A stretch of 64,000 bases of DNA from a phage. Positions 1,103-1,958 of the stretch are shown in pieces (position 1 is the stretch's first letter; each line of letters starts with the position of its first letter). Location of the stretch: assembly GCA_024790105.1 (NCBI GenBank), contig GCA_024790105.1_3053.1; one strand, 5' to 3'. The notes below the pieces were generated by a model that worked only from the letters and a program-made list of their open reading frames with translations, ran no database searches and was not told where the DNA came from. Position numbers and translations under genes: made by a program.

Positions 1103-1124
1103 TTTATTCTCCTCGGTAGTTGAT

Positions 1125-1165
1125 AGGGTAATAGTATCACAACTAAAACCCTATGTAAACAACTT
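1125..1165 (-). promoter_or_regulatory. T4-type early promoter with flanking stem-loop (PeSL-like cassette)
   Basis: minus strand GTTTAC - 18 nt - TACTAT; inverted repeat ATAGGGT/ACCCTAT brackets the -10; shares a 31-bp block with 1483-1513. Confidence 0.5.
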
Positions 1166-1172
1166 TGTGAAA

Positions 1173-1430
1173 TTATTTTAAATCTTCTAATCGTTTCTTC
1201 ATCTTAGAACCATTTTTAGCAATTTCTCCTGCATCGGAGCATAATGCTAAAAGTGCTTTAACTTTAGTTTGGTCTCCTTTAAAAGATGAAGGATCGACTG
1301 CAGCAGCAAGTTCTTTAATACGAGAGAAAAGACGCTCAGCTTCAGCTAAAGCCATTCCAAGCTTTACTTCCATGCCATGAGAAGATTCAGTAATAGTAGT
1401 TTTTGTAGCAAACTCTTTGAAAGTTTTCAT
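1173..1430 (-). CDS. internal-protein-like head protein with N-terminal capsid-targeting-like sequence
   Basis: N-terminus MKTFKEFATK...TE resembles the T4 internal-protein capsid targeting sequence (MKTYQEF...); 85 aa. Confidence 0.5.
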   Translation of the reverse strand: MKTFKEFATKTTITESSHGMEVKLGMALAEAERLFSRIKELAAAVDPSSFKGDQTKVKALLALCSDAGEIAKNGSKMKKRLEDLK

Positions 1431-1454
1431 TTTATTTTCCTAATTAATTTTGAT

Positions 1455-1495
1455 GAGGTAATAGTATCACTACCTCATCAGTATGTAAACAACTT
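1455..1495 (-). promoter_or_regulatory. T4-type early promoter with flanking stem-loop (PeSL-like cassette)
   Basis: minus strand GTTTAC - 18 nt - TACTAT; 10-bp inverted repeat TGATGAGGTA/TACCTCATCA around the -10. Confidence 0.5.
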
Positions 1496-1502
1496 TGTGA
1501 AA

Positions 1503-1958
1503 TTATTTTAAATCATCTGCCCAATCGAGTTTAAGAGGCTCTTTGTATTCACGATCTAATACGACCGGAATTTGTACATCACCGCTAAATGATAAGGGCC
1601 CAACATTATAAGACAATGTTATATGCGGTGTGTAATCATCAAAATCATGTGTAGCACCTAGTGCCCGCGCATACATGTGTCGACAGCGCAGATATTCAGA
1701 ATCTAGCACAAGTACAAGAGTCGATCCATCTTGTGTTTTCCATACTTCTAAATGCCCAGAAGAAGCTACTTCAAAACTTCCACTCGATGGAACATATGGA
1801 ACATTTACTCTCGAATAACATATAGTCGAATGAATTTTTTCTCTAGGAACTGGATTAGGAACACGTAAAGAGCGCTGGAGTTCTTCCAGCGCGTCAAGTG
1901 TTAATTCTGAAAACTTAGCTGCTACATAAAGACCCGTTGAAAAGTCTTTAAATTCCAT
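1503..1958 (-). CDS. 57B: gp57B-like protein
   Basis: position immediately upstream of 57A and gene 1 as in T4; 151 aa. Confidence 0.6.

Follow-up and report, generated by a model that had tools for sequence, protein, structure and literature searches.

The window analysed here is a stretch of 64,000 nucleotides (nt) of phage DNA (NCBI GenBank assembly GCA_024790105.1, contig GCA_024790105.1_3053.1) from a Tequatrovirus (T4-like) genome, in which the early genes lie on the minus strand and the first 3 kb share 92-97% identity with hundreds of Tequatrovirus genomes. Its internal protein (IP) locus, located between the genes 57B and trna.4, carries two similar cassettes, each combining a putative early promoter, an inverted repeat and the translation start of the following gene, and the gene flanked by these cassettes encodes an internal head protein. 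An initial annotation had described them as repeated early-promoter/stem-loop cassettes of the PeSL (promoter early stem-loop) kind, associated with gene shuffling, and this description is supported by the present analysis. In the direction of transcription, the features of the locus are:

1503-1958, minus strand: 57B, coding for Acb1, a nuclease directed against CBASS, the antiphage signalling system that relies on cyclic oligonucleotides; upstream conserved flank (Pfam PF23474, E 3e-60)
1482-1514: direct repeat, upstream copy in the direction of transcription, 33 nt exact
1431-1514, minus strand: cassette 1, at the 57B/ip5 boundary; last 3 codons and stop of 57B, AT-rich block TTTCACAAAGTT, then the promoter
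1173-1430, minus strand: ip5 (ipV), internal head protein of 85 amino acids (aa), the cargo (PHROG 3499 'internal head protein', E 1e-49)
1152-1184: direct repeat, downstream copy, 33 nt exact
1103-1184, minus strand: cassette 2, at the ip5/trna.4 boundary; last 3 codons and stop of ip5, then the same AT-rich block TTTCACAAAGTT
917-1102, minus strand: trna.4, counterpart of T4 trna.4, predicted membrane protein of 61 aa, downstream conserved flank

The counterpart of the 85-aa open reading frame (ORF) at 1173-1430 is annotated as ip5/IpV in PP01, PST and ACG-C40, and the N-terminus of the protein is a capsid-targeting sequence, MKTFKEF...ITE/S. A 31-nt block, reported by the initial annotation at 1153-1183 and 1483-1513, does occur at exactly these two positions, with 0 mismatches, and it was found in 0 of 100 shuffled sequences; the exact repeat extends to 33 nt with a period of 330 bp, and in a gapless comparison the two copies are identical at 59 of 69 positions (86%; 1120-1188 against 1450-1518). 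The sequence of both copies, written for the coding (minus) strand, is GAT TTA AAA TAA-TTTCACAAAGTT-GTTTAC-AT; the repeat thus holds the three final codons (DLK) plus the stop, those of 57B in one case and those of the 85-aa gene in the other, together with the -35 element, as had been proposed, and the conserved block reaches 12 nt into the upstream coding sequence in both cassettes.

The promoter elements follow the same order in the two copies. Cassette 1 has the -35 GTTTAC at 1490-1485, an extended -10 GTGATACTAT at 1470-1461 and a hairpin TGATGAGGTA/TACCTCATCA at 1480-1451, and it ends with the Shine-Dalgarno (SD) sequence AGGA and the ATG of ip5 at 1430; in cassette 2 the -35 GTTTAC lies at 1160-1155, the extended -10 GTGATACTAT at 1140-1131 and the hairpin ATAGGGT/ACCCTAT at 1154-1123, followed by the SD GAGGAG and the ATG of trna.4 at 1102. 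Both can be written as GTTTAC, 14 nt, GTGATACTAT, which corresponds to TTTACA-N17-TACTAT with a TG upstream of the -10. The intergenic spacers measure 72 and 70 nt, the SD is placed 7-9 nt ahead of the ATG, and the 24 nt located 5' of the -35 in both cassettes (GATTTAAAATAATTTCACAAAGTT) are 83% A+T, against an average of 64% for the window.

Gene content between the two conserved flanks is variable among related phages. 57B has matches in 555 phage records, with identity reaching at least 95% in 503, while ip5 was found in 252, ipI in 163 and ip6 in 222. In the 11 intervals from 57B to trna.4 that were read, relatives with nearly identical 57B and trna.4 differ in the cargo found between them:

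ipI: T4
ip5: the window, PP01, BP32
ip5 and ip6: PST, ACG-C40, Killian, PBM-1
ip5, ipI and a 74-aa IP: T4_ev240
ip6 alone: the IMG/VR contig L014
a new 90-aa IP: L021

All these IP genes start with the capsid-targeting sequence MKT(F/Y)(K/Q)EF and have a cassette ahead of each of them. Gene content between cassettes is therefore not invariant across relatives, invariance being the outcome that the initial annotation had named as speaking against its proposal. The same annotation had regarded both the internal protein gene and the small membrane protein gene as plastic cargo bracketed by cassettes, and this stands for the first only: ip5 is the sole gene truly bracketed by the two repeats, 57B (acb1) lying upstream, whereas trna.4 is placed downstream of cassette 2 and abuts trna.3. 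The trna.4 protein is identical in the nine genomes compared (9/9) and no cassette follows its gene, so that the label of bracketed plastic cargo is wrong for trna.4. As for the two further cargo proteins, the gene for the 74-aa IP (MKTYQEFIAEAKRHEDEL...) lies at 1670-1894 of T4_ev240 (L003) and that for the 90-aa IP (MKTYQEFIAEADFNEKVK...) in L021 downstream of position 3478; both products carry the capsid-targeting sequence and are candidate injected anti-defence proteins.

Two main types of cassette can be distinguished at this locus: type A, with the stem TGATGAGGTA/TACCTCATCA and the 5'-untranslated region (UTR) AAATTAATTAGG, and type B, where ATAGGGT/ACCCTAT forms the stem and the UTR is that of trna.4 or of ip6. 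Three chimeric cassettes were found in relatives, in T4_ev240 (between ip5 and ipI), in Killian (between 57B and ip5) and in L021 (between 57B and the 90-aa IP). In all of them a type-B left half (A[TC][AG]GGGTTTTAGT) is joined to a type-A right half (TACCTCATC[AG]AAATTAATTAGG), with the switch point falling within the shared -10 core GTGATACTATTACC, and the stem is destroyed. These chimeras place crossovers inside the cassette, in agreement with the cassette-mediated shuffling suggested by the initial annotation. An unequal crossover between a B cassette located after ip5 and an A cassette located before ipI, in different genomes, would give the chimera of T4_ev240. Furthermore, L014 reads 57B...DWADDLK*-[one intact B cassette]-ip6-trna.4, with ip5 missing exactly between the repeat positions; this arrangement is what would be expected if ip5 had been lost by exchange between the flanking repeats, and it would equally serve as a substrate for ip5 insertion. 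A separate observation concerns the ip6/trna.4 cassette of L001, L004, L006 and L007: compared with window positions 1131-1154, it apparently contains the same spacer blocks in swapped order (type-B spacer ATAGGGT+TTTAGTT against TTTTAG+ATAGGGTA), with the 5' stem arm shifted by 6 nt.

Taken together, the cassettes are probably T4-type early promoters that act as portable homology for exchanging IP genes between T-even phages. Each is made up of an AT-rich block and the -35 GTTTAC, then, after 14 nt of spacer, the extended -10 GTGATAnTAT, and lastly the SD and ATG belonging to the gene that follows, and would give a small early gene its own start of transcription and translation. In four of the five cassettes of the window the 10-nt extended -10 is located in the loop of a 7-13-bp hairpin, a structure that could form only in transcripts reading through from upstream or, on the DNA, in the non-template strand. 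In other T-even phages, other IP genes are flanked by these same cassette types, which suggests that the cassettes act as portable homology, and the two copies around ip5, 330 bp apart, have 33 exact nt in common within a region of 69 nt that is 86% identical. Phage homologous recombination would cross over within cassettes, either in mixed infections or, inside a single genome, between its two copies, with the result that IP genes would be added, deleted or replaced as ready-to-express units, leaving their neighbours undamaged. For exchange between the two copies around ip5, a circle of 330 bp is predicted. This corresponds to the PeSL/IP-locus model of Repoila 1994, Arbiol 2010 and Comeau 2014.

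A first alternative is that these are ordinary early promoters without any role in shuffling, whose likeness reflects a long and strong consensus, while indels fall at tolerant spacers and the underlying events use long conserved coding flanks or microhomologies of 2-10 bp. This explanation seems unlikely, since it does not account for three independent chimeras that change type inside the shared -10 core, nor for the absence in L014 of ip5 exactly between the repeat positions, with one intact cassette left. Moreover, the repeat also covers 12 nt of coding sequence (DLK*) in each of two unrelated genes, which no promoter consensus would include. In a common frame of 69 nt, 15 T4-type early promoters from the window and T4 share 46 +/- 10% identity, whereas the two cassettes of the ip locus are 81% identical, 3.5 standard deviations above other promoter pairs, and the two located next to the cd genes, described below, are 93% identical. 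As identity enters two unrelated coding sequences, the two copies of the ip locus share descent, by duplication or exchange.

The pattern GTTTAC-N16-19-TAnnWT returned five minus-strand sites in the 64 kb (1490, 1160, 59933, 63472 and 63821), all intergenic, and none on the plus strand, against a shuffle expectation of 2.2 +/- 1.4 over both strands. They coincide with the two cassettes of the ip locus and with the three similar ones that the initial annotation had placed at 59896-59937, 63431-63480 and 63781-63830, and they are the only minus-strand promoter-like matches with TG before the -10 in the two stretches scanned. The three additional cassettes are:

59866-59983, minus strand: cassette 3, at the 30.9/30.6 boundary; GTTTAC (59933-59928)...GTGATAGTAT (to 59904)
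63413-63474, minus strand: cassette 4, at the boundary between cd.3 and a 175-aa ORF; GTTTAC (63472-63467), GTGATATTAT (to 63443), hairpin GGTAGAGTT/AGCTCTACC (63461-63434)
63751-63823, minus strand: cassette 5, promoter and hairpin as in cassette 4; GTTTAC 63821-63816, -10 to 63792, hairpin 63810-63783

Cassettes 4 and 5 read TTTACT-N17-TATTAT, and in the T4 record the site homologous to cassette 4 carries the annotation of an early promoter, Pe133295. Cassette 3 (TTTACA-N17-TAGTAT) is preceded by a canonical intrinsic terminator at 59983-59962 (z -4.2) and followed by a small GGGC-TTCG-GCCC hairpin (~59883-59866).

All five cassettes sit at a difference in gene content from T4 or PhiZZ30. 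At cassette 3, 782 bp containing genes 30.8 and 30.7 are deleted relative to both phages, with the breakpoint some 23 nt downstream of the -10 (59880/59881), a position that is not resolvable to the nucleotide; within the stretch 59851-59986 of the window, an early promoter which in T4 serves 30.8 is fused to the 30.6 hairpin and SD. Between the SD of cassette 4 and cd.2 there is a 175-aa ORF (62885-63412), absent in T4 and present in PhiZZ30. Cassette 5 is found at the junction of a 349-bp tandem duplication comprising cd.3 and the cassette (window 63408-64000), whose copies are 86% identical; at this junction the GAGGAAA of the cassette is joined to the 3' end of cd.4 via about 4 nt of shared sequence. 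The upstream copy of cd.3 is close to cd.3 of T4 and PhiZZ30, while the downstream one has diverged. No single-piece alignment to 59000-64000 was obtained with any of the 30 best database matches. The cd.3 duplication and the 30.7-30.8 deletion were considered as cassette-to-cassette exchanges and rejected: there is no cassette ahead of cd.3, and the junctions are at the edge formed by the SD and the 5'-UTR.

The second alternative concerns the hairpins. The inverted repeat around the -10, which the initial annotation had noted for the two copies of the ip locus, is present in cassettes 1, 2, 4 and 5, which have a significant hairpin with the -10 box in the loop, and absent from cassette 3, where folding revealed no inverted repeat at the -10 (z -0.3). 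The RNA minimum free energy of the hairpin is -17.4 kcal/mol for cassette 1 (z -6.5) and -13.2 kcal/mol for cassette 2 (z -3.6), with 0 of 200 shuffles as good in either case, and -16.3 kcal/mol for cassettes 4 and 5 (z -5.8); folded with DNA parameters, these stems lose stability but remain unusual (z -2.7 to -4.8). Type A, the cd type and the type found at the ip6/trna.4 boundary (type C) have unrelated stem sequences with a common register of pairing: when columns are numbered from the G of GTTTAC, 11-20 pair with 31-40 in all three. Over 8 distinct sequences, selected from the cassettes that fold in that register, 96% of the cells pair and 6 of 10 pairs are changed on both sides, a result reached by 0 of 500 shuffles, while slid controls gave 33-68% pairing. 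Changes on one side only, observed in PST, BP32, Killian and PBM-1, give G.U pairs on the sense strand and would give C.A on the other. In T4, hairpins enclosing the -10 also occur at the ipIII/ipII/denV locus (-9.2, -20.4 and -6.4 kcal/mol), and most other early promoters in a 22-kb stretch lack them.

The stability of the hairpins, the compensatory changes that maintain their register and the restriction of one-sided changes to the sense strand would be in line with the hairpin itself being the main functional part, whether by terminating or attenuating transcription or by stabilising the 3' ends of RNA read through from the upstream gene, in the manner of the composite promoter-terminator by which PeSLs are defined, its conservation reflecting regulation; in RB49 the stem-loop of PeSL211/210 did terminate transcription in a reporter (PMC2839356). 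This explanation is possible, though rather doubtful. There is no U-run after the stems of cassettes 1, 2, 4 and 5, where the terminator scan made no call, and a terminator function of the -10 hairpins is thus unsupported here; a GC-rich stem with a U-run right after it, as in rho-independent terminators, is seen solely in the separate hairpin upstream of cassette 3. In addition, chimeric cassettes with destroyed stems are viable, and T-even stem-loops are described as weaker and AT-rich (Arbiol 2010, PMC2839356). The hairpin could still attenuate read-through RNA or stabilise its 3' end, or its effect could be on the DNA. In the latter case, it might be a selected, strand-specific element and no by-product, in which a hairpin extruded from the non-template strand of injected or replicating DNA exposes the -10 to sigma70 in single-stranded form or makes a structure-specific nick site where recombination starts. 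This idea arises from the register being kept by compensatory changes while one-sided changes are tolerated only on the sense (non-template) strand, and it appears quite improbable; if true, a DNA-acting hairpin would couple promoter function and a recombination hot-spot in one structure. A further pairing was noticed in the ipII/denV cassette of T4 (L009, 15356-15415), where, besides the small -10 hairpin, an outer 9-bp pairing CTCCTGTAG...CTACAGGAG is present, which would sequester the denV SD in read-through RNA.

A third proposal, by which a dedicated recombinase recognises the hairpins, as integrases do with folded attC sites, and moves gene cassettes in an integron-like, site-specific manner, is suggested by formal analogy alone, namely by hairpins found at every cassette boundary, by cargo consisting of one gene and by the comparison with integrons made in PMC2839356. 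It has very little plausibility and was rejected, because no recombinase gene and no conserved stem sequence were found. The neighbours at the locus are 57A, 57B/acb1, trna.2-4 and an HNH endonuclease gene, none of them integrase-like, and stem sequences are not conserved between cassette types; furthermore, crossover zones are found where the shared sequence is longest, which is what homologous exchange would produce.

Several observations weigh against the reading of the cassettes as portable homology for IP gene exchange. At cassettes 3-5 the junctions lie between the hairpin and the SD/ATG, at the 3' edge, and the only resolvable one, that of cassette 5, shares about 4 nt, so that the rearrangements at these three cassettes are not events of cassette-cassette homology; in experimental evolution of T4, amplifications and deletions occurred between microhomologies of 6-10 bp (PMC9391042). 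Indels are present at all three cassettes of the 59-64 kb region, where about 6 gene boundaries have spacers longer than 40 nt and 3 carry cassettes, but this is not significant against a spacer null (~0.125), and the association between indels and cassettes is not statistically separable from indels occurring at intergenic spacers. In IMG/VR T4-like contigs a 19-nt part of the repeat, TTTCACAAAGTTGTTTACA, is found elsewhere as well, at other loci and ahead of genes that are unrelated, and in T4 TTTCACAAAAC(T/G)GTTTACA precedes e.8 and nrdC.10; this part is therefore merely an extended early-promoter consensus, and the similarity between cassettes would exceed that consensus only partly. At the ip locus itself, 57B and trna.4 are at least 95% identical over hundreds of bp, so that a simple replacement of ip5 by ipI could use these flanks without cassettes. 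As for the hairpin, the covariation test is selective, since only types A, C and cd could be counted together, while type B, the cassette between the 74-aa IP and trna.4 and those of T4 ipII/ipIII pair in other registers. The stems of type B show partial degeneration in PST and PP01, and chimeras with broken stems persist in nature, which indicates that the hairpin, though favoured, can be dispensed with. Finally, we infer promoter activity from the consensus and from the annotation of T4, and likewise the hairpin role and the recombination pathway.

Around the locus, the window contains the following genes:

2200-2952, minus strand: gene 1, deoxynucleoside monophosphate (dNMP) kinase
1958-2200, minus strand: 57A
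512-916, minus strand: trna.3
222-509, minus strand: trna.2
1-112, minus strand: HNH (F-TflIV-like) endonuclease gene, 5' part, running off the left end, on the tRNA-cluster side of trna.2

Pfam searches found no family for ip5, trna.4, trna.3 and trna.2, a tRNA scan of the window found none, and Rfam covariance models gave no match at E <= 1 in window positions 1-2500. At the position of the endonuclease gene T4, PST and PP01 have a tRNA-Gln instead; the endonuclease is also present in ACG-C40, BP32, PBM-1, Killian and T4_ev240, with an extra 171-aa ORF there in Killian. Another repeat of 34 nt, identical at 33 of 34 positions, was observed at 186-219 and 61163-61196, one copy between trna.2 and the endonuclease gene and the other between 31.1 and gene 31. 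On the minus strand it reads A-TGCTTTA-AGAATTATTTGT-TATTAT-TAACTCAT, resembling a MotA box followed, after 12 nt of spacer, by a -10; it looks like a duplicated T4 middle promoter, which would represent a second class of repeated promoter cassette, to be compared with the 'PmSL' of Comeau 2014 (PMC4122927).

Internal proteins are injected anti-restriction factors, and Ip1, Ip2 and Ip3 of T4 each block a different GmrSD-type nuclease (PMC12373910); the ip locus, in turn, adjoins acb1, an anti-CBASS gene. Swapping IP genes as pre-wired expression units would help to explain the fast change of host range in T-even phages, and the cassettes may mark where new anti-defence genes, such as those for the 74-aa and 90-aa IPs, can be sought.

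Cassettes of the ip locus are already known, and the window represents a further allele of a hyperplastic locus that has been described. The repeated early-promoter/stem-loop elements of the T-even IP locus are credited to Repoila 1994 (EMBO J 13:4181) by PMC2839356 and PMC4122927, and the comparison with that work follows the descriptions given in these later papers. According to them, those elements lie at the same locus (57B-ipX-trna.4), in the same genus, with variable IP cargo sharing the capsid-targeting sequence; no essential difference emerges from these descriptions, and the window allele has ip5 only, as PP01 and BP32 do. The T-even elements are based on T4 early promoters, have weaker, AT-rich stem-loops and are analogs, not homologs, of the PeSLs of RB49 and phi1 (PMC2839356).

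The name PeSL was defined by Arbiol 2010 in RB49 and phi1, for elements with promoter and terminator activity and associated with mini-circles (PMC2839356), and was later extended to PST/T4, with the consensus TTTACW-N17-TAYWAT, by Comeau, Arbiol and Krisch (2014), who list IP differences among those between PST and T4 (PMC4122927). The match with PeSLs put forward by the initial annotation holds for the PST/T4 consensus and for the variable cargo; it is unsupported for the terminator half, and homology with the RB49/phi1 elements does not apply. Four of the five window cassettes agree with TTTACW-N17-TAYWAT, cassette 3 being one position off (TAGTAT), and, as in PST/T4, an AT-rich region is found upstream, an SD and ATG at the 3' end, and the elements adjoin indels between close relatives. 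Thus all the features that characterise PST/T4 PeSLs at the sequence level are present, namely promoter, AT-rich upstream region, stem-loop, intergenic position and association with indels, while junctions inside the element were found at the ip locus (3 chimeras and L014) and not at cassettes 3-5. In cassette 3 the stem-loop is upstream of the promoter, as drawn for PST (PMC4122927); conversely, in cassettes 1, 2, 4 and 5 it encloses the -10, differently from the PeSLs of PST, and the stems are not of the AGNA-loop-TCNT type.

With the RB49/phi1 PeSLs the cassettes share the composite organization of promoter, stem-loop and SD, the flanking of single small genes, and a stem-loop placed between -35 and -10 or overlapping the -10. 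The crossover in RB49 was mapped within the loop (PMC2839356), and the chimeras point to an equivalent zone at the locus studied here. However, RB49/phi1 PeSLs have near-perfect sigma70 promoters (TTGACA/TATAAT), G(n)-loop-C(n) stems, demonstrated terminator activity and mini-circles, whereas the present cassettes are known from their sequence, with a -35 GTTTAC and AT-rich stems (TGATGAGGTA, ATAGGGT and GGTAGAGTT) without a U-tract. The microhomology events of T4 (Srikant 2022, PMC9391042) resemble the junction of the cd.3 and cassette duplication, with its approximately 4 shared nt; they need no cassette, while in the exchanges at the ip locus the cassette sequence shared amounts to 33-70 nt. 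Overall, the window adds no new principle to these systems; it offers a clean example of the described mechanism together with natural intermediates, represented by the chimeric cassettes and by the precise absence of ip5.

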